Shown here one piece after another: positions 14,274 to 63,594 of a DNA stretch of 64,000 nucleotides. The first letter of the stretch is position 1; each line of letters opens with the position of its first letter. The notes under the pieces were generated by a model. The model was not told where the DNA came from, made no database searches, and saw only the letters and a list, made by a program, of their open reading frames with translations. The position numbers were made by a program, and so were the translations under genes. The stretch is from Anolis carolinensis (taxonomy: Eukaryota), in the NCBI RefSeq assembly GCF_035594765.1, contig NC_085843.1, positions 110,337,971-110,401,970 on the forward strand, read 5' to 3'.

Positions 14274-17200
14274 CTAGGACTGTGTGATGTATTTTCGGAT
14301 GATGCGCGCAGATCCCAGCAGGGTGACCTTTTGCAGTTGGCAGATCATAATTTTGTCAATGCCTATTGTTTCCAAATGCCGGCTGAGATCTTTCGGCACG
14401 GCACCCAATGTGCCCATCACCACCGGGACCACCTGCACTGGTTTCTGCCAGAGTCTTTGAAGTTCAATCTTGAGGTCCTGATAGCGGCTGAGTTTTTCCT
14501 GTTGTTTTTCCTCAATGCAACTGTCACCTGGGATGGCGACATCAATGATCCAAACCTTTTTCTTTTCCACAACTGTGATGTCTGGTGTGTTGTGTTCCAG
14601 AACTTTGTCAGTCTGGATTCGGAAGTCCCACAGTATCTTTGCGTGCTCATTTTCCAATACTTTTGCAGGTTTGTGATCCCACCAGTTCTTTGCTGCTGGG
14701 AGGTGGTACTTGAGGCATAAGTTCCAATGAATCATTTGGGCCACATAGTTGTGCCTCTGTTTGTAGTCTGTCTGTGCAATTTTCTTACAGCAGCTGAGGA
14801 TATGATCAATGGTTTCGTTGGTTTCCTTGCACAGTCTGCATTTTGGGTCATCAGCTGATTTTTCGATCTTGGCCTTAATTGCATTTGTTCTGCTGGCTTG
14901 CTCCTGGGCTGCAAGGATCAGGCCTTCTGTCTCCTTCTTCAGGGTCCTATTTGTGAGCCATAGCCAGGTCTTCTCCTTATCAGCTTTTCCTTCAATTTTG
15001 TCAAGGAACTTTCCATGCAATGTTTTGTTGTGCCAGCTGTCAGCTCTAGTTTGTAGTGTGGCTTTCTTGTACTGGTTTTTTGTCTGCTGTGCTTTGAGGA
15101 GTTTATGATTTTTGACTTCAATCAAAGCAGGTTCTTCACTTTGCTTTACATATTCTGCCAGGGCATGTTCTTCTTCTTTCACTGCTTGTTTTACTTGTAA
15201 GAGTCCTCTGCCCCCTGATCTTCTAGGCAGATATAGCCGGTCAACATCACTGCGAGGGTGCAGTGAATGATGGATGGTCATGAGTTTTCTTGTTTTTCTG
15301 TCCAAATTGTCCAGTTCCGCCTGTGTCCAGTTTATAATGCCAGCAGTATATCTTGTGACAGGTATGGCCCAGGTGTTTATGGCCTTGATGGTGTTGCCTC
15401 CATTGAGCTTGCTTTGTAGAATTTTTCTTACCCTTTGTGTGTATTCTTTACTGACCACAGTCTTCACATGTTCATGCTTGATGTTGTTCAGCTGTAATAT
15501 GCCCAGATATTTATAGGCCTCTGGCTGGTGACACTCTATTGTTTGGCCATTAGGCATATTTATGCCCTCACTTTCAATGATTTTTCCCTTCTTCAATGCC
15601 ACTGTCGAATATTTGTCCAAGCCAAACTCCATGCTGATATCAGTGCTAAAAATTCGGACAGTGTCGGGGGTGCTATGAATGTGATTTCCTGCTTCTTGGC
15701 AGGGGGTTGGACTGGATGGCCCATGAGGTCTCTTCCAACTCTACTATTCTATGATATTATGATTCTATGATTCAGTGTTAGTCAGAGACTGGATTTCAGT
15801 TTCCGTTTTTCCATACAGCTTCAGGTCATCCATGTACATCAGATGCGAAATTTTGTGAGAATTCTTAGATGTTTGATAGCCGAGATTTGTTTTTTGTAAG
15901 ATTGTTGACAGAGGGATCATGGCAATAGTGAAAAGCAGAGGGGACAATGAGTCTCCCTGGAAAATTCCTCTCCTGATGTTGACAAGTCCAGAGCTTTCAT
16001 TTCCAACAAACAGTTCCGTTTTCCAGTGCTCCATCATGTTTTCAATAAAGGTGCCAACGTTTTTACTAATCCCGATGGCGTCCAGGCACTTGATGATCCA
16101 GCTGTGTGGGAGTGAGTCAAAGGCCTTTTTGTAGTCAATCCACGTCATGTGAAGATTAGCTTTTCAGCTTTTACAGTTCTCCAGAATCATTTTGTCAATC
16201 AATAACTGGTCTTTTGTGCCCCTGCTTTTCCGTTTGTTGCCTTTCTGTTCATCTGGCAAGATGCTATTTTCTTCAAGATAGTCTTGAATTCTGTCAGCTA
16301 TGATGCCAGTCAGTAGTTTAAACATAGTGGGCAGACATGTTATTGGCCTGTAGTTTCCTGGTGCTGCTCCTTTTGCTGGAACCTTTTGTATCAGGTATGT
16401 TCTTCCAGTTGTTAGCCATTCACTGATACTTCCTTTCTGCAGCATCTCATTGAATTGTTGGGCCATTTTTCCATGTAAACTAATCAGATGTTTGAGCCAA
16501 AATCCATGAAGTTGATCACTACCAGGCGATGTCCAGTTCTTGACTTTTTGCACTCGTTTGCTGATCATTTCAGTTGTTATTTCCATCTGTTCCATTTTGT
16601 TCTGTGAGAATTTTCCTTCAAACTCCTTTATCCACCCAGCGTTTTTGTTGTAGTTCTTATTATTTTCCCAAAGCTCTTTCCAGAACTTCGTTGTTGCAGT
16701 TTTCTCTGGCTTTATGGTTACTGTGTCTGTTGTTTGGTTCAGGCTCTGATAGAACCGTCTTTGGTCTGATTGAAACAGTTGATTTTGTCTGTACTGGATG
16801 ATTCTGGCTTCATATCTTTCATTTTTTCTGGCTGTTGCTGTAATTTGTTCTTTCACAATTTCCAAAGCTTCTTCAATTTTTCTGGTGTTCAGCCAGTACT
16901 TTTGGATCAGGTATTGCTTGATTTTGTCATTCTTCAGTTTCTTCTCTTTCATATTTTTCAGGTTACTTGCATCTGATCTAAGTTTCTTGATTTTCAACTC
17001 TAGCCTGACCTTCCACTTTGGTTTTCCAGTCGATTTTCTTTGGGGCTGCCTTGGTTCTAGGAGCCCAAGCTCTTCTGTTACTATCATTGTTGCACTGTAG
17101 GCATACTGGTTTGTTTGTTCAATTGATGTTATTTGGACAGTGGAGAGTACTGCATTCACATCTTTCATGAGAGGCGCCAGGTGTTTCTTGGGCACTGTTT

Positions 17201-17762
17201 TTAGAGTTGGGAGCCGCTTTCTTATTGCATTTGCTGCAGCATGAGCCATGATCTTATTCTTGAGCTCTTGTTGTCTTGCTGTCAAGGTTCCTGGTGGTTC
17301 AACAGGTGTTTCAAGTGCTGGTTCATCAAATTCTTGCAAAAGCTCCACACTTTCTTCTGGTTCAATCTGTTCCACCATTCCAAGTGTGGCTGGAGTCTCT
17401 GCTACTGTCTGTGCTGTGGTCTGATGGTAATTTGCTTTGCAGATTTTCTGGATTCTGAATCTTCGTTGGTCAGCCAGTCGGGGTTCTGTTATCTGTGAGT
17501 CAGGGTACTCTTGTTTCCATAGCTGATGTATCCTTTTTTGGTAGCCGCGCTTTTCAGGTTCAGAGTTGTACTAGCATTTCATGACTGTGCGGTTTTCTGG
17601 CTTTGTATATTTCTGCCGCTTCTGTGACTGTTCATTTGGGTTTTGATGATTCCGTAGCCCACTTGTCGATGGATGTCCAGAATCATCAGCATCCACCGTT
17701 GTCCTTTTTATCCTGGGCGACGACCAAGCCAGTAAAGACTGCGTTTTGGTTTGATTCTCCAT
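14274..17762 (-). pseudogene. Disrupted RT-RLE ORF of the R4/Dong element
   Basis: ORF pieces 17571-17762, 16164-17378, 15765-16148 and 14274-15632. Stops at about 17572 and 16164, a probable deletion/frameshift near 17450, and a CR1 insertion at 15665. Confidence 0.92.
15665..15772 (+). mobile_element. 108-bp 5'-truncated CR1 3' end inserted into the R4 RT domain
   Basis: GGGGTTGGACTGGATGGCCCATGAGGTCTCTTCCAACTCT followed by (ATTCTATG)n tail; TSD CAGTGT at 15659-15664 and 15773-15778. Confidence 0.92.
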
Positions 17763-36580: not shown

Positions 36581-37859
36581 CTTACTTACTTAGGCGATCC
36601 CTCGACGTTCGAGGACGATGGTCTTCCAACCTTGGTATCTTGGGCGTGTGTTCTTAGGTGACTGAAGAGACCGATTCTTGACCCGCATATTCTCCCGCAG
36701 TGAGGACATCGGTTTCCAGGTGGAAGGCGGTCCCGGTCGGGGTTAGCTTGACGCTCCTTCCTCTTGGCACGTTTCTCCCTTAAGCCCTCCGTTCGTGCCT
36801 CTTCAAACTCCGCAGCACTGCTGGTCACAGCTGACCTCCAATTAGAGCGCTCAAGGGCCAGGGCTTCCCAGTTCTCAGTGTCTATGCCACAGTTTTTAAG
36901 GTTGGCTTTGAGCCCATCTTTAAATCTCTTTTCCTGCCCTCCAACATTCCGTTTCCCATTCTTGAGTTCAGAGTAGAGGAGCTGCTTTGGGAGACGGTGA
37001 TCGGGCATTCGGACAACGTGGCCAGTCCAACGGAGTTGATGGCGTAAGAGCATCGCTTCAATGCTGGTGGTCTTTGCTTCCTCAAGCACGCTGACATTTG
37101 TCCGCCTGTCTTCCCAAGAGATTTGCAGGATTTTCCTGAGACAACGCTGATGGAAACGCTCCAGGAGTTTGGTGTGACGTCTGTACACAGTCCACGTTTC
37201 GCAGGCATAGAGCAGGGTTGGGAGGACAATGGCTTTATAAACAAGCACCTTGGTCTCTCTACGGATGTCCCGGTCATCGAACACTCTCTGCTTCATACGG
37301 AAAAATGCTGCACTCGCAGAGCTCAGGCGGTGTTGTATTTCAGTGTCGATGTTGACTTTTGTGGAGAGGTGGCTACCAAGGTAGCGGAAATGGTCAACAT
37401 TTTCTAATGTTGCACCGTTAAGCTGTATTCCTGGCTTTGCAGAGGGATTAGCTGGTGCCTGTTGGAAGAGCACTTTGGTTTTCTCGATGTTCAGTGAGAG
37501 GCCGAGCTTCTCGTATGCTTCTGCGAAGGTGTTTAGAGTGGCTTGTAGGTCTTCTTCTGAACGCGCACAGACTACGTTGTCATCAGCATATTGGAGTTCT
37601 ATAACAGATGTTGTGGTGACCTTGGTTTTGGCTCTCAGTCTGCTGAGGTTAAATAGCTTGCCATCTGTCCGATAGATGATTTCCACTCCGGTGGGAAGCT
37701 TCCCATCAACAAGGTGAAGTATCATAGCGATGAAGATGGAAAATAAGGTGGGGGCAATAACACATCCCTGCTTGACACCTGATTCAACCTTAAATGGGTC
37801 ACTTTGGGAGCCGTTGCTGTCCAAGACTGTTGCCATCATGTCATCATGGAGGAGCCGCA
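36581..37859 (-). mobile_element. Young 5'-truncated RTE-clade LINE with an uninterrupted ORF
   Basis: GVKQGCVIAPTLF, ELQYADD, FRYLGS, RWTGHVVRMPDHRLPKQLL and a C-terminal C2H2 finger (CPHC..HLRTH); (TAAG)n tail. Confidence 0.95.
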
Positions 37860-37932
37860 TCCCCGGGCAATGTCCTTGCACCAGAAGCGACTTGCAGTTT
37901 CTCAAGTTGCTCCTGACACGGAAAAAAAAAAA
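37857..37932 (+). mobile_element. 3' end of the Vingi-tailed SINE fused head-to-head with the RTE
   Basis: CCCCGGGCAATGTCCTTGCA-CCAGAAGCGACTTGCAGTTTCTCAAGTTGCTCCTGACACGG-A11 matches the tail of the SINE at 12378-12667. Confidence 0.85.
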
Positions 37933-38879
37933 TCCCTCCAAGACCGGGAGGGTGTGACTTGATAATCTGAACCTGGCATCCTAGTCCAACATTAAAACCA
38001 CTACCTCACATTAACTCATGATCATTTAGTAAATTTTCTGGCTTCTGCTTTTGAACTTTCCTTTTGTTCCTAAGTAGCAATCACTCTGAGGGATTTAGGG
38101 AGGTTGGATTGACATTCCTTTATTATTCTCATTGCCTGGTTAATTGGAATATTTCTGTTTCAGAGAACAGTCTTGTTCCTATATTTTATTGCTGCCATGT
38201 CACACACAAGAAACTTTATTTCTCAAGTTTTCTGGGATAGATATATTGGATGGGTGGGTAATAAATGGGATATTTTTTAAAAAGTGCTTGTTTCCTTCTT
38301 TTGCAAGCTAAATATAGGTACAAGGGAAGGAACAAAATCATGAATGCGATATTTTTCGTCTTTATTCTGGCAACATTAGGGTAGCAATAAAATGTAAATT
38401 TGTACATCAACTTAGACTTAACACAAATGTATAAACAACTTCTTTATAATGTGAACATGATTGAACTATTATTTTTAGATTTTTAGTGTGCATATAATGC
38501 AATGCTATACTGATATACTGAGATAGTATGACCACAGTTCAGGAAAGGACAAAGAACACAATTCAGCAGAAAACAATTATGCTATCTAACATTGATAATG
38601 TAGGGCCATTAGGATGAATCCTTAGATCATTCCAATGTTGACCATAAATGAACAATTGCCCCAGAATACGAATGTGATGAACCATAAAATTGGCCCTCTA
38701 TTAAGCAGTTTTGGGAGTAACTATGTTAGGGTCTTATTGTTAAAATATGATTATTCCACTTTTACTTCTATAGTTTTGCAACTCTAGAATGTGTAGTTTA
38801 GTAAGACCCAAAGGTTATCTGGCTAAAATTCTAAATTTCCCTCCTTAAAGTGCAAATTCCAGCATTGCATGCCCCAGCA

Positions 38880-42041: not shown

Positions 42042-43227
42042 GGCAGAAATACGATCAAGGCTCTCAACACCTGGGCCATACCCGTCATTAGATACACTGC
42101 TGGAACTGTGGACTGGACACAAGCAGAGCTAGATGATCAGGACAGAAAAACAAGAAAACTGATGACAATCCACTACTCATTACACCCACGTAGTGATGTC
42201 GACAGACTTTATTGCCCAGAAAATCAGGAGGCAAAGGTCTTCTGCAAGTGAAACAAACGGTAGAAGAAGAGGAACATGCCCTGGCAGATTATGTGAAAGG
42301 CAGTCAAGAACCAACATTGAGGGAAGTCAACAGTAGTAAACTGCTTCAAGTGCAAAAGACAAAGAGTGAATACTGTAAAAACGCAATCCAGAGCAGAAGA
42401 GAAAACTGGCGAAAGAAGGCTGTCCACAGACAGTTCCTGGGAAAAATCGAGACCCAAATTGACAAAGAAAAAACATGGCAGTGGTTCACAAATGGAACTT
42501 TGAAAAAGGAGACGGAGGGCCTGATTCTGGCAGCCCAAGAACAAGCCATCAGAACCAATGCCATCAAAGCCAAAATTGAAAAGTCACCGACAGATCCCGA
42601 ATGTAGACTCTGCAAGGAAGCAGATGAAACAATAGATCACATCCTCAGCTTCTGCAAGAAGATTGCATGGACAGACTACAAGCAGAGACATAACACCGTT
42701 GCTCAGATGATTCATTGGAACTTGTGCCACAAATACCATCTGCCTGCGACAAAGAATTGGTGGGATCACAAGCCGGAAAAAGTTACAGAGAATAAACATG
42801 TCAAGCTACTCTGGGACTTCTGAATTCAGACAGACAGGGTTTTGGAGCACAATACTCCTGACCTCACAATCGTGTTAAAAAATAAAGTATGGATTGTCAA
42901 TGTTGTAATCCCAGGGGAAAGCAAGATTGAAGAAAAACAACTGGAAAAGCTGACACGATATGAGGATTTAAAGATCGAATTGCAAAGACTCTGGCACAAG
43001 CCAGTCAAGGTGGTCCCAGTGGTGATGCCTGCACTTAATCACAATCGGTACTGACAAAATTACCATCTGCCAGCTGCAGAAGGCCACCTTACTGGGATCT
43101 ACACGCATTATTCGTTGATACATCACATAGTCCTAGACACTTGGGAAGTGTCCGACGTGTGATCCAATTCAACAGCCAGTAGAGTGTCTGCTGTGGACTC
43201 AACTTGTGTTTCAAATAATAATAATAA
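42041..43227 (+). mobile_element. 5'-truncated R4/Dong element (second subfamily) in (TAA)n
   Basis: ORFs 42212-42823 and 42842-43054 are homologous to 14274-15632; TAA arrays on both sides. Confidence 0.93.
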
Positions 43228-45407: not shown

Positions 45408-47345
45408 TTTTTAAAAAATAATTTTTATTAACATTTTGCAAATACAGTGCAGGTTTAAAAGCGGGGGGGGTGTGAGGGGAAGAGGGGGGAAGGAAAGGGG
45501 AGAATTTTAGGGATGGATAGGGGGAGGGGGGAAACAGGGAAAGGGGAAGGGAATGAAACAAAATAAGGATCAGGGAAACAACACCAATACAGGGAAGTAA
45601 TCTTCCATTCTTTTCCTCTAAACATAAATTCACTGTATTTAACATTTTTTTAATTCACAAACTTTTAATCTACAACTCTAGCTTTCTTAAGGTATTCTTC
45701 CATTTTAGTCCAATTTGTCCTTCTTACATAATTTCCTCTTGTCTCCTTCGGAAGAAACGTAAGTTTATCCATACTATGTATCTCTTCTAACTTGTCCATC
45801 CAAGTGTCTTTCTTCGGAATATCCTCTAATTTCCATGCTTTCGCAAACGTCATCCTGGCGGCTGTAGCACAATATGTAAAAAGAATTTCATCATTTGTGT
45901 CAAATTTGGTCTCATTATCTGTAATTCCTAATAAGTAATATTCAGGTTTTAATAAAAATTTCTTTTGTAAAATAATTTGTGTTTCTTGATGGATCATTTT
46001 CCAATTTTTTTAGTCCTTTCACAAGTCCACCATAGATAATAAAATGAGCCTTCCTGGGTTTTACATTTCCAACATTTTCTATCATAGTTTTTATACATCT
46101 GACCTAATTTTTTTGGCGTCATATACCATCTGTGGAATAATTTAAGCCAATTTTCTTTTAAATCAGAAGCATACGTATATTTCAACTTCTTATTCCATAT
46201 TTTTTCCCATTCCACTAATTTAATTGGGCGACCCACATTCCTGGCCCATTTTACCATACAACTTTTAATTTCCTCAGTTTCTGTCGACCATTCTAACAGA
46301 GTAGTGTAAATCTTAGAAATTGTTTTCTTGTTGTCTAGTATTATTTTATCCCAAACATTGTCGAGGTTACTAAAGCCTATTGTGCTATCCTTATTAAATT
46401 GTTCCTTTATTTGTACATATTGAAACCAAGAGATAGCAGGGAAATTCAACTTTATCTCTTCTTGTGTTTTCAATTCATATTTATCTTTCCTTTTAATCAA
46501 AACATCTTTATATTTTGGCCATTTTAACCATCTTAATATGTTCCTTTGATTAGCCTCCAGTGATGAAATCCAGAGTGGAGTCTTATTATTATAAAATCAC
46601 AACTTATATTAAGGCTGATCTAATAAAGTGGTTTCCGAAATTTTTCTCGATTTTCCTTTTTTCGTAGCCGATATATGCATGCCAGCCTCGATGCAGCTCC
46701 AACCCCTCCAGAGTTAATATACTTTCGTTTTCAAGTGTTGCCCAATCTTTTATCCACAATAGAACACTTGCTTCAAAATATAGTTGCAAATTTGGAAGAC
46801 CAAAACCGCCTCTTTTTGTTGTGTCTGTCATAATGGTATATTTAATTCTTGGCTTTTTGTTTCTCCAAATAAATTTAGATATTATATTATTCCAATCTTT
46901 AAAAATATTGTTATTCCTAATAATTGGTAGATTTTGAAATAAGTACAATAATTTAGGTAAAATATTTATCTTAATAATTGCAAGTGAAATATTTAAAAAT
47001 TGCCAGTTTTGTAGATCCTTCCTTATGTCCTTCCATTTAACAGTATAATTATTTTCTAATAGTTGGGCATTTTTTGCAGTGATCCAGATTCCTAGGTATT
47101 TAAGTTTTGGTACAACCTTTATTCCTGTCATTTCTTGTAATCTTCCCTGGTTCAGACAGGACGATAAACTAAAAGGAATAAAATTAAGAAGTCAAGAATT
47201 TAAAATTCGAGCATTTGCGGACAATATAATATGCATAATTGAAGAACCCAGAAATCAAATTTCAAATTGGTTCCAGAAAATTGAAACATTTGGCAGATTA
47301 GGGGTTTTTTACATTAACAAAGAGAAAACGAAAATTCTTTCGAAG
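45408..47345 (-). mobile_element. L1-clade LINE, 5'-truncated with a 5' inversion
   Basis: Minus-strand ORF2 pieces (KYLGIWI, GGFGLPNLQLYF, CWKC..YLWWTC) and A-rich tail. Segment 47148-47345 is inverted (RAFADN..INKEKTKIL on the plus strand). 12-bp TSD CACATTTGTTTC. Confidence 0.92.
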
Positions 47346-60170: not shown

Positions 60171-60180
60171 TGAGTGTCAC

Positions 60181-61317
60181 TGTCAAGGACAGAACGCCAC
60201 AAGATCAAAGATAACAGAGTTTATTGAATTACAGAACTCAAAAATGCCCGTATAATACAAGGGCCAGGCAGTATTAGCCTTTAGGAGCAAAAAGGGACAA
60301 GGAAAAACGTTCAAAAGATAAACCGGATTAAACCGGAGTTTAATCCGGGTAAAAACAAACTGCTTGCTTCAGCCTGGGGATAAACAAAACAAAAGCCGAG
60401 GAACAAAAGATACAAAAGAATGCAACTAATTGGCAGCAGATTCCTCTCTGCTGCCAGCACTGTGCCTAGAGTAACTTGCGTCGCTCCCACACACACAGAC
60501 AGGATTTCCAACACGAACAGATCAGCCAAGGATTGTAGCAGTAGAGTAGACCCAGTTCCTTTCCGTAGATCAAAGCCAGAAGCAGACGTTTGTAGTTTCC
60601 AAGTCCGAGAAGGGGGAAGTCAAGCCGTGGTCAGTTCAGTCCGAATTTCAAAGCAGGAGATGGCGTCCGTCAAGAAGACGACGGAAGGTCAAGCTAATAA
60701 GAGTAAGCACAGGTTTGCACAAACAAATGCCCACACAATTCCTCCCGCCGTCTGACCCTGAATTCCAAAACAACTTACGTATCAGCACACGAAAACACAC
60801 CAGTCTTCAGGAAAGCGTCCCACACAGATCCCAAGCGTTCGTCCAGATTACCTTGCCCAACGCAATTTGCAATTGCTCCCAAGCCCCATTTTATGCCAGT
60901 TACAAATCCTCATCACTGTCAGCTGTCCTCCTTAACCCGGGCGTTTCCTCATCACTTTCCTCATCAGAGCTGGAACACCTCTGACTACGCCCCACAGCAT
61001 CTCCAGCTGTGGATCCCGTCCCATCCCTCCAGCTTGACCATGGGTCTAATCCTGAAGGTCCCCATTCATCTTCCATCCCATCATTGCCAGTGGCACCCAA
61101 TTCCTCCCTCACCCGAGTCCAATCCATCTCATCCTCCTCCGAGCTAACCAGCCCCTCCTCCATTCTCTCCGTAAACCCCTCAAAAGACTCTTCGTCAGAT
61201 GGTGCTGCAAAAATGTCTCGCAGTCTTTTTCTTTCTCGCTCCTCGAGAGTATCTGACTCTCGAGGAGTCTTACGCCCACGTCTGCCAGTAACAGAGCCAT
61301 GAGGCTCAATCATAACA
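60181..61317 (-). mobile_element. Young solo LTR, 1137 bp (probably Gypsy/Ty3-type)
   Basis: TG...CA termini; perfect 5-bp TSD GTCAC (60176-60180, 61318-61322); minus-strand CATAAAA (60889-60895) and AATAAA (60220-60225); CpG-rich. Confidence 0.93.
60900..61313 (-). CDS. 137-aa acidic U3-encoded protein with an NLS-like patch and a LEDGF/TND-binding-like FxGF motif
   Basis: ATG at LTR position 5; intact frame; GRRGRK and RERKRLR basic patches; DIFAAPSDEESFEGF; several S-x-x-E/D CK2-type sites; stop 4 nt before the TATA-like box. Confidence 0.6.
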   Translation of the reverse strand: MIEPHGSVTGRRGRKTPRESDTLEERERKRLRDIFAAPSDEESFEGFTERMEEGLVSSEEDEMDWTRVREELGATGNDGMEDEWGPSGLDPWSSWRDGTGSTAGDAVGRSQRCSSSDEESDEETPGLRRTADSDEDL

Positions 61318-63594
61318 GTCACTCTGTAGTGACTATTAGAACTGATAGTCTTGAGGCTCAGTTCTCAAAAATCTCTAGTATCTATTTCCAATAGACACTA
61401 GAGACGAGATTAAAACACAATAATTTAATCTGCAGAATAACACTAATAACTACTGGACCATTAAGTGCTTTCAGTAGCACACACTGTTACTTTAATGAGG
61501 CAACAGGTTATGGATGCCACATTTAAGGTGACAACCTCTTTCTAGCTTTAAAAAGAAACCAAGGAAAGCTTTGCTTATTAGAGCTGTAGTTATTCATCAA
61601 ATGGGTTGAATGCTGTGGCGTCCTTCACAAGTTCCACATAATAACACTGAACTTGTGCTTTTTCTTGTCTCATTTTTGACAGCGGTTGTGCTTTAGCTGA
61701 AGATCCAAATGTTTTCAATACAGCTCCCCCAAACAGAACCAATGTTAAATCTTTTGTAACAGACTGCATGTTCTGAATTGTAGGCAGCAACAATTGCTAA
61801 CCAATATATTATAAGGCTGCCAAGGAAATTTCTAGTCCTTGCCAAGTAATTGCTATTTCTTTCCTTAAAAATACAAACAGGAATAATGCCAGAGCTTCAG
61901 AGGAAATGAAGGTACAATTTCCTTAGCTAATGACTGTCCACACTGAATAGTTATTTTCTCATACAAATAAGACCAGGAACCAGGTTGGCATTTGAGGCAG
62001 AAAATCGAAATGGACTCCCTTCTCAATGGTAAAATAATAATAAATGATACTGACAAGCAAGGAGTTTCTAGAAGGTCCTCACAATCTGATGCAGAAAGCA
62101 GCTCTCTTCCTCTGCATAATGCTTTTTTAAGTGGGTGAGAAATTGTTTTTGTTTTGCTGGCTTGCTTGTTTAATTCATATTCTGCCTTTCAGCCAAGGCT
62201 CACAAAATGGTTCATGATAAAATTTTAAACATAATGGAATTGTTTTGACTATTAAAACATTGCCAGAAAAATCTATATGCATCTACTCAGATTAAAGTGG
62301 TCTAAATAAAATGGGACTTACTCCTAAAACTGTAATCTAAGGGCTCATTCATCTACCTGGGCTTAATATCCTGTACTCACTGTGTGTTCAATTTTGTCCC
62401 TCTCCCTGATGTTCTGCCACTTCTGAAATCACAGGGTAAACCTAATTAACCTGGCTTAGCCCCCTGTTTTTTAAAAATGATGTGGGAAGCTCCAGAGTTT
62501 TCTTGACATTTTGATGCAACCCAGCAATTTTTAGTGCAGTGTGGACAACAGGACGAGATCCCATTTGAACTGGTCCAAAAGCCAGACTGGCCACCACTGC
62601 CATGCCCTTTTCTCTGCTCTCATCAACAGAGGAAAAGAAGATAGATTAGAGTGGTGTTGCTGCTTTTGCTGCTACTAGGTGGTTACAAAGCTTAATGGGA
62701 ACCCCTGGCTGTTGCTGGAACTCTGTTCTGCCATCAGAATAGGTGTGCCCATAAGATTTGCCCCCTATTTCTCTCTAGGACTTCATAGGGCTAAGATGGG
62801 GGAAAATGGGGGGAAATGTATTCTTTGCATGTAGAATCATATTCTTTGCGTGGGATTCCATCTTAAAAGATCTGAAGACGCGCAAAGCAGAGCCAACCCA
62901 AAATTCCTATATAAATTATTGTAGGAAAATATAAGAATAGGAATCATTAACGTAACTTGAAGAATTAAAATGGAATGTATTTTTGTTGGCATGTCCAATA
63001 CAAAGATCTGGCAAAGCATTTAAAGTGTTATTAATCAAAGAACTCAATTAGCATCATTAATCACTAATTGCCTGGTTATTATTCCTGATGCCCATTAAAC
63101 AGTATAATTACCAACAGCCATGTTCCATGCCATACATAGTCATAATATTTCGAAGAAATAAATAAAACTAAATTTAGGATGAGCAGTGAAAAGGAGGGTT
63201 CATAATTATTATGACAACCATAGTAACAAAAAGGGAGATTTTATATATATATATAATTTGGAAGGGACATGTGTTACTAGGATTGGGACAAAGTGTTATC
63301 ATACAAATCTGTTCATTGACATTGCAAGCTATCAGAGTCAAATTGGAATATGTTAACTCTTGTCTCCATCCATATACTGATGGAGAAGGAAGTTAATATT
63401 TCTTAATCTTTGAAACAAGACAGATTTTGTTATAGATGCATTCAACTAATGATGTCTTTCCATATGACTTACCTGTTAGACTTGGCAGAAAATGTGTTTT
63501 TTAGAATAAGAAATTATATAAGTCCTAAATACTCTTTTAGTCCTGATGAGTAAATCTACTGAACAAATTATATCTATCTCTGTGTACATTCATT

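Follow-up and report, generated by a model that had tools for sequence, protein, structure and literature searches.

In a 64,000-nucleotide stretch of the Anolis carolinensis genome (RefSeq assembly GCF_035594765.1, contig NC_085843.1, positions 110,337,971 to 110,401,970; hereafter the window, whose coordinates we use), a solo long terminal repeat (LTR) of a Gypsy/chromovirus-type retrotransposon carries a frame of 137 codons plus stop in its U3 region (60900..61313, minus strand). In full-length copies of the element this frame encodes the C-terminal tail of Pol/integrase. The tail occupies the position at which related elements carry a chromodomain, which this element lacks; it is under purifying selection at the protein level, and it has the layout of a TND-interacting motif (TIM, also IBD-binding motif, IBM), TND being the TFIIS N-terminal-type domain and IBD the integrase-binding domain of LEDGF/p75 and HRP2. 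We give an even chance to the proposal that this motif is an integrase tether to LEDGF/HRP2 that guides integration.

The assignment of the frame to integrase comes from the full-length copies, where the pol frame crosses the polypurine tract, enters the 3′ LTR and terminates with the same stop as the U3 frame. In each of the three subfamilies of the element the Pol frame measures 1211-1214 aa from stop to stop and has the LTR stop as its end (1214 aa in subfamily A, to which the window copy belongs). Because the Pol frame runs through in this way, the 137 residues are the C-terminal tail of integrase and not a free-standing gene. The initial annotation had read them as a small separate protein, while proposing to check whether the frame extends upstream into the internal region; it does so, being continuous with pol, and the separate protein is not supported. 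MMTV sag and HIV nef, the comparison for separate LTR-encoded accessory genes, have frames apart from gag-pol-env, which is not what was found here. That the tail is found in a solo LTR at all follows from the copying of U3 into both LTRs. Its frame begins at LTR position 5 (61313) and its stop ends at 60900, 4 nt ahead of a TATA-like box, CATAAAA (60889..60895, minus strand), an uninterrupted run that agrees with the initial annotation. The ATG at LTR position 5 is present in all subfamilies, within a conserved LTR end that is also found in sister families. At 60863, 37 nt downstream of the stop, is the putative transcript start (the self-primer), which places the entire frame within U3; the frame was rightly described as lying upstream of the promoter of the solo copy and probably unexpressed from it, and would be an untranslatable remnant there. 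Searched alone, the tail matched 0 Pfam families at E≤10 and gave just two uninformative matches at 0.76 in the ESM Atlas. It is a disordered C-terminal extension and would remain on the mature integrase.

The element belongs to a multi-copy family. A DNA search of the genome with the LTR gave 40 scored copies at 99-100% over the full length, many of them paired ~5.18 kb apart. Full-length copies measure 6.2-6.4 kb; the two LTRs of a copy share 99.0-100% identity, and the target-site duplications (TSDs) are 5 bp long (10 measured, 1 with a mismatch). They encode Gag (DUF4939, Ty3 capsid) and then an overlapping Pol frame, in which Pfam detected protease (PR), reverse transcriptase (RT), RNase H (RH), the integrase (IN) zinc finger and core, and a Tf2-like SH3 domain. 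Neither env nor an additional long forward open reading frame (ORF) was found between pol and the 3′ LTR. The order of gag and then PR-RT-RNaseH-IN, the TG..CA LTRs, the TSD and the lack of env are those of Ty3/Gypsy elements. The element's primer-binding site (PBS) shows complementarity to a segment of the LTR, not to a tRNA, which is the hallmark of Tf1-type self-priming (PMC4600332). The complementary segment, at LTR position ~455, comprises 11 nt in 9 of the 10 full-length copies measured and 8 nt in one, with one further full-length locus not parsed. In the window this 11-nt segment lies at 60853..60863 (minus strand) and marks the putative Tf1-type self-primer and transcript 5′ end. Judged by sequence, this is a young, multi-copy Anolis Gypsy element, putatively self-priming and of the Tf1/sushi chromovirus type. 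Its three subfamilies, A, C (tail 90% identical to that of A) and B (76%), have at least 150 matches each and are closely related, with RT-IN 94-97% identical.

The chromodomain that marks the integrase C-terminus of chromoviruses was not found: Pfam detected no PF00385 in Pol at E≤0.1. The domain is present at the position of the tail in four of five non-Anolis relatives, including those of Podarcis and medaka, and Pol groups loosely with chromodomain-bearing squamate elements, which points to a secondary loss in the Anolis lineage. A GEEAF/EEEAF stretch just before the junction, at about the spacing at which sister elements start their chromodomain, suggests a remnant and a deletion of the chromodomain. 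The read-through into the LTR, via the same D-S-V-M junction, is likewise seen in sister families of this genome that do have a chromodomain. Since they share both the read-through and the position-5 ATG, both are older than the motif. In the sister tails (L112-L141, L177-L196) a DEEEN-x-[G/D]F stretch is kept in 42 of 50; it is acidic and ends in GF, without the first phenylalanine of the motif, and is perhaps a degenerate or precursor form of it.

The motif itself follows the described architecture of a TIM, in which an anchor helix is followed by an acidic linker 8-16 residues long and, optionally, by FxGF (PMC9987994). The same source describes FxGF as essential for, and special to, the known partners of LEDGF/HRP2, and binding as strengthened by CK2. 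In the tail, a helix predicted at residues 23-36 (61206..61247, minus strand; pLDDT, the predicted local distance difference test, 69-79 for the block and 58 for the whole model) ends in L-R-D-I-F-A and includes L31, I34 and F35 as the candidate anchor. An 8-residue linker between F35 and F44 follows, rich in D/E and with S39 in a CK2-type site. The core, D33-F47, ends in F-E-G-F (61184-61173) and lies at 61173..61217 (minus strand), exactly where the initial annotation had placed it. F-x8-FxGF is present in all 85 copies fetched, a biased sample in that 55 were picked by protein score. The stricter consensus [E/D]xExFxGF (10.1101/2023.01.30.526367, PMC8022399) is matched by 30 of 30 copies of subfamily A. 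All three phenylalanines of the tail lie in the motif, at the spacing of JPO2, and F-x(7-10)-F-x-G-F arose in 24 of 200,000 shuffles of the tail (a post hoc test, as the motif had been named beforehand). The abundance of CK2-type sites (S/T-x-x-D/E) that had been pointed out was confirmed as a count, 14 in the tail, but is unremarkable where D+E make up 28% of residues.

We computed dN/dS (the ratio of nonsynonymous to synonymous substitution rates) pairwise between real copies of subfamilies A, B and C. It was 0.16-0.24 for the tail (Fisher p 1e-9 to 5e-8), 0.05-0.14 for residues 26-62 and 0.02-0.03 for the upstream integrase, as against 1.0-3.8 for other reading frames, save the antisense frame sharing third positions (0.3-0.4). 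No indel separates the subfamilies over the 411 nt of the tail, compared with 26-52 alignment blocks in the non-coding LTR, and the frame has exactly 137 codons in all three. The tail is thus under purifying selection, and the motif block has the lowest dN/dS among three tail blocks in all three subfamily pairs. The earlier claim that U3 encodes a TIM/IBM-like motif is supported, and the motif is kept by selection across subfamilies. Counts of open frames in young copies (84 of 85 open) were considered as evidence of selection and rejected, because the copies resemble one another too closely (92-100%) and the majority had been selected by protein score.

The cellular motif with which the initial annotation compared the tail is that of JPO2/CDCA7L. 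A search of the whole PDB with the tail returned two matches at E≤10, the better being 6EMO, a fusion of LEDGF IBD and JPO2 M1, with 11 of 15 residues identical. The JPO2 alignment given in the initial annotation therefore stands for the core; its 'SSEE' extension does not, being outside the alignment and absent from lizard CDCA7L. We located the lizard CDCA7L M1, M2 and CDCA7 motifs in the genome. Identity to lizard CDCA7L M1 is 10/15 for subfamily A, 8/15 for C and 6/15 for B, and identity to lizard CDCA7 is 9/15; the local score against CDCA7L M1 was reached by none of 5000 shuffles (post hoc). Capture of the motif from CDCA7L, which had also been suggested, found no support. The A-P-S portion of the JPO2 match differs between subfamilies, and the codon of the shared serine differs between element and host (TCT vs AGT). 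DNA similarity does not extend past the motif as in a captured exon: the flanks agree with lizard CDCA7L/CDCA7 at about chance level (7-11/27 upstream, 13-19/60 downstream), blastn over 80 kb of the CDCA7L and CDCA7 loci gave nothing at E<0.3 (best E 0.32), and outside the core no homology to CDCA7L/CDCA7 was found at either the protein or the DNA level. A very old capture from CDCA7L/CDCA7 may have occurred; convergence on the host consensus appears likelier, because the anchors are kept while the spacer drifts, as convergence and not capture predicts.

According to the tether proposal, the motif, having arisen by convergence on the host consensus, would bind the IBD of LEDGF/p75 or HRP2, with CK2 phosphorylation probably strengthening it. 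The PWWP domains of these proteins would then tether the integration complex to H3K36-methylated, transcribed chromatin, and the TIM-like tail would take over the targeting role of the chromodomain. Genes with the LEDGF domain are present in the genome. When the tail was modeled with the Anolis LEDGF IBD, ESMFold2 gave 0.44 versus 0.01 for the best control, with a partner pLDDT of 53-54 and runs that agree in at least 60% of contacts, which supports the pairing weakly; in calibration, 51 of 78 solved pairs attained the mark, as did 2 of 108 mismatched ones.

Several observations weigh against the tether. The residue at -2 is D and not E in subfamilies B (30/30) and C (25/25). The match to 6EMO has an E value of 1.6, which is not significant, and a family profile searched against the PDB retrieves no match to JPO2 or another LEDGF partner at E≤10. 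At ESMFold2 values of 0.60 or below, only 5 of the 78 solved pairs attained the mark, along with all 4 mismatches that passed, and as a like complex, 6EMO, has been solved, the pass may reflect memory of it. Residues 16-30 and 91-105 vary as little as the motif does, each with 14 of 15 positions unchanged across the three subfamilies, and for the latter pN is 0.03 vs pS of 0.37 between A and B. The chromodomain sister tails, which have no FxGF, are constrained too (dN/dS 0.19-0.57 in 15 pairs, after 6 pairs with the mis-parsed locus L053 were dropped), and selection on an LTR-encoded Pol tail is therefore not special. The protease could trim the tail off integrase. Finally, insertions showed no enrichment on microchromosomes: by the coarse proxy of contigs C7 and up, which are small, presumably gene-rich and make up 15.3% of the assembly, 32 of 450 listed LTR matches lie there. 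For the chromodomain families the figures are 4/90 and ~13/143 (Fisher p 0.49 and 0.47). The matches were counted by hand, LTR pairs were left uncollapsed, and ~7 rows were dropped as probable host genes, 3 of them read. Both groups fall below the 15.3% length share, and purging may therefore hide a preference.

The absence of a microchromosome bias would also fit a real TIM that does not serve site choice, a reading we consider fairly unlikely. Such a motif would bind LEDGF/HRP2 or some other protein with a TND (IWS1, TFIIS, Mediator, PNUTS) to serve retention in the nucleus or on chromatin, integrase stability, or the protection or activation of the new insertion, possibly as a peptide released by the protease. 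TNDs are many, the pass in structure prediction does not single out a family member, and residues 10-16 form a basic stretch that, in our reading of the sequence, resembles a nuclear localization signal. What speaks for targeting instead is the position at the integrase C-terminus, where the tail replaces a known targeting domain, together with the reported restriction of FxGF to LEDGF/HRP2 partners (PMC9987994) and the precedents for targeting by integrase tails (PMC4176367, PMC5053271).

The FxGF may also be a chance look-alike in an acidic, disordered tail that is selected for another partner or a generic role, which we regard as unlikely. Purifying selection on sister tails that keep a DEEEN-x-GF stretch without FxGF speaks for this reading, and the non-significant PDB match and its loss with the family profile agree with it; moreover, as the subfamilies are so close, the invariance of a few residues is weak evidence alone. 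Set against this are the placement of all three phenylalanines in the motif at JPO2 spacing, rarely reproduced by shuffling, the helix predicted to precede them, the lowest dN/dS of the motif block, and the similar motifs of a distant lacertid lineage. Least credible, indeed highly improbable, is a sag/nef-like accessory protein translated in the 3′ LTR from a separate ATG, with a motif captured from CDCA7L: the universal position-5 ATG and the likeness of subfamily A to lizard CDCA7L M1 agree with it, but the frame is continuous with pol, the ATG belongs to a conserved LTR end shared with sister families, the flanks do not resemble those of CDCA7L/CDCA7, and the codon of the shared serine differs.

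The lacertid motifs were found in a distant Gypsy lineage that comprises Podarcis muralis proteins (P0282-P0284) as well as P0025 and P0041, where helix-like W..F-x9-FxGF motifs follow integrase; RT-IN identity to the Anolis lineage is 48-50% for P0282-P0284. In this lacertid-like lineage (P0282-P0284, P0025, P0041, P0009) a divergent chromodomain precedes one or two acidic motifs of the form FxGF or [M/L]xGF. Among 133 scanned relatives (with the GPY/F end), just 2 have a motif of this kind. A PDB search with the motif stretch of P0025 gave no match to a LEDGF partner at E≤10. When the Podarcis-type two-motif tail was searched for in the Anolis genome, the best 150 scored matches covered query residues 1-125 or less, and the loci inspected were copies of the chromodomain sister families. 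We tried to establish an independent origin of the Anolis and Podarcis motif lineages and could not: free trees (15 rows, a quick LG+G4 tree) separate them, but their monophyly was not rejected (approximately unbiased test, p 0.096), so that independence rests solely on the differing position of the motif, which for Podarcis was inferred from protein.

A second resemblance to a host motif was noted in the chromodomain-bearing sister family of Anolis (L112-L141, L177-L196), whose Pol continues into the LTR and terminates in RRS[A/L]RIAA[K/R] in 44 of 50 tails (some loci overlap). The HMGN nucleosome-binding motif is RRSARLSA (PMC12487698), and by eye the sister tails are possibly a second, HMGN-like mimic. 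RRSARL also occurs near the protein end of Podarcis P0007. A broader scenario, which we hold to be rather doubtful, is that squamate chromoviruses repeatedly rewrote their integrase tails with short linear motifs (SLiMs) of host chromatin proteins: the present Anolis lineage would have exchanged its heterochromatin-type chromodomain for an LTR-encoded, LEDGF/HRP2-binding TIM and switched to H3K36-methylated gene bodies, a lacertid lineage would independently have acquired TIMs in tandem after its divergent chromodomain, and the sister Anolis family would have gained the HMGN-like motif.

The layout of the Anolis element has a parallel in the plant CRM group A, where Pol extends into the 3′ LTR and a CR motif encoded by the extension substitutes for the chromodomain (PMC3059260). 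That motif is associated with centromeres, and the paper identifies no partner for it, whereas the Anolis motif, in a vertebrate, is similar to a defined SLiM with which host proteins bind an H3K36me reader. Short motifs in flexible integrase C-terminal tails that bind a host chromatin protein are known from Ty5 (Sir4p) and from gammaretroviruses such as MLV (BET) (PMC4176367, PMC5053271); the Anolis motif and predicted partner differ from these, the tail is LTR-encoded, and targeting is proposed. With lentiviral integrase the element would share the host domain (IBD/TND) and the tethering to transcribed chromatin through LEDGF/p75 or HRP2 (PMC5053271, PMC9987994), yet the lentiviral protein binds via its folded catalytic-core dimer and N-terminal domain, while the disordered TIM-like peptide of Anolis would mimic cellular partners. 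Among these, JPO2/CDCA7L, CDCA7, MLL1 and IWS1 have the helix, the acidic S/T-rich linker and the FxGF in common with the tail, but the likeness is confined to the core, and in subfamilies B and C one position departs from the strict consensus. Tf1/sushi chromoviruses likewise have Gag and an overlapping pol, PR-RT-RH-IN-SH3, a 5-bp TSD and a PBS complementary to the LTR (PMC4600332); the Anolis element differs from them in lacking the chromodomain and in its 137-residue LTR-encoded TIM-like tail.

In the literature covered, which leaves out most subscription journals and Repbase reports, we came across no TIM/IBM described for the integrase of a retrotransposon. Targeting by integrase tails is known, and a TIM-like motif in such a tail would be new. 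Tethering by LEDGF/HRP2 is described as a lentiviral trait that works via the folded core of integrase. For a retrotransposon to arrive at the same host domain with a short motif of cellular type would, if confirmed, be a clear convergence and a natural swap of targeting modules, from chromodomain to TIM. It would be a case of a non-lentiviral retroelement using a lentiviral host cofactor via motif mimicry, with a matched control family in the same genome. The proposal is directly testable with a 30-residue peptide and a 90-residue host domain, and with hundreds of young copies beside the chromodomain sister family, and it bears on the role of the variable LTR-encoded integrase tails of chromoviruses.

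The remaining parts of the solo LTR agree with its description as intact and CpG-rich. It occupies 60181..61317 on the minus strand (1137 bp), has TG...CA ends, is flanked by GTCAC TSDs of 5 bp (60176..60180 on the left, 61318..61322 on the right), and has a CpG observed/expected ratio of 0.64 compared with 0.23 over the window. The tail contains a second conserved block, the W-rich residues 91-105 (60999..61043, minus strand), to which no known motif was assigned. A polyadenylation signal, AATAAA (60220..60225, minus strand), stands near the LTR end. The R region appears to be very long, about 650 nt from the self-primer to AATAAA (60863-60181, minus strand), and U5 very short. Within R lies an 85-nt GT..AG intron candidate (60694..60778, minus strand), unusual for the leader of an LTR retrotransposon, whose joint was seen in contigs of 3 of 4 runs (runs guessed to be RNA). 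In contigs from the 4 runs every one of the element's 30 bins is covered; among the 8 joints listed from them, none was a GT..AG joint from leader to tail, an absence that contigs cannot establish.

Elsewhere in the genome, a PSIP1/LEDGF-like copy that has no introns and is interrupted by a stop within the IBD (L070, C2 ~143.72 Mb) is a probable processed pseudogene. The RefSeq 'uncharacterized protein' XP_062830654 (L082/P0013) combines an RT fragment of LINE-like type with an LTR tail of subfamily B and is probably an annotation artefact spanning two adjacent repeats. By eye, no obvious host exons were recognized in the window, and long frames at 14274-17570, 36586-37980, 42197-42823 and 45665-47191 resemble fragments of non-LTR retrotransposons.
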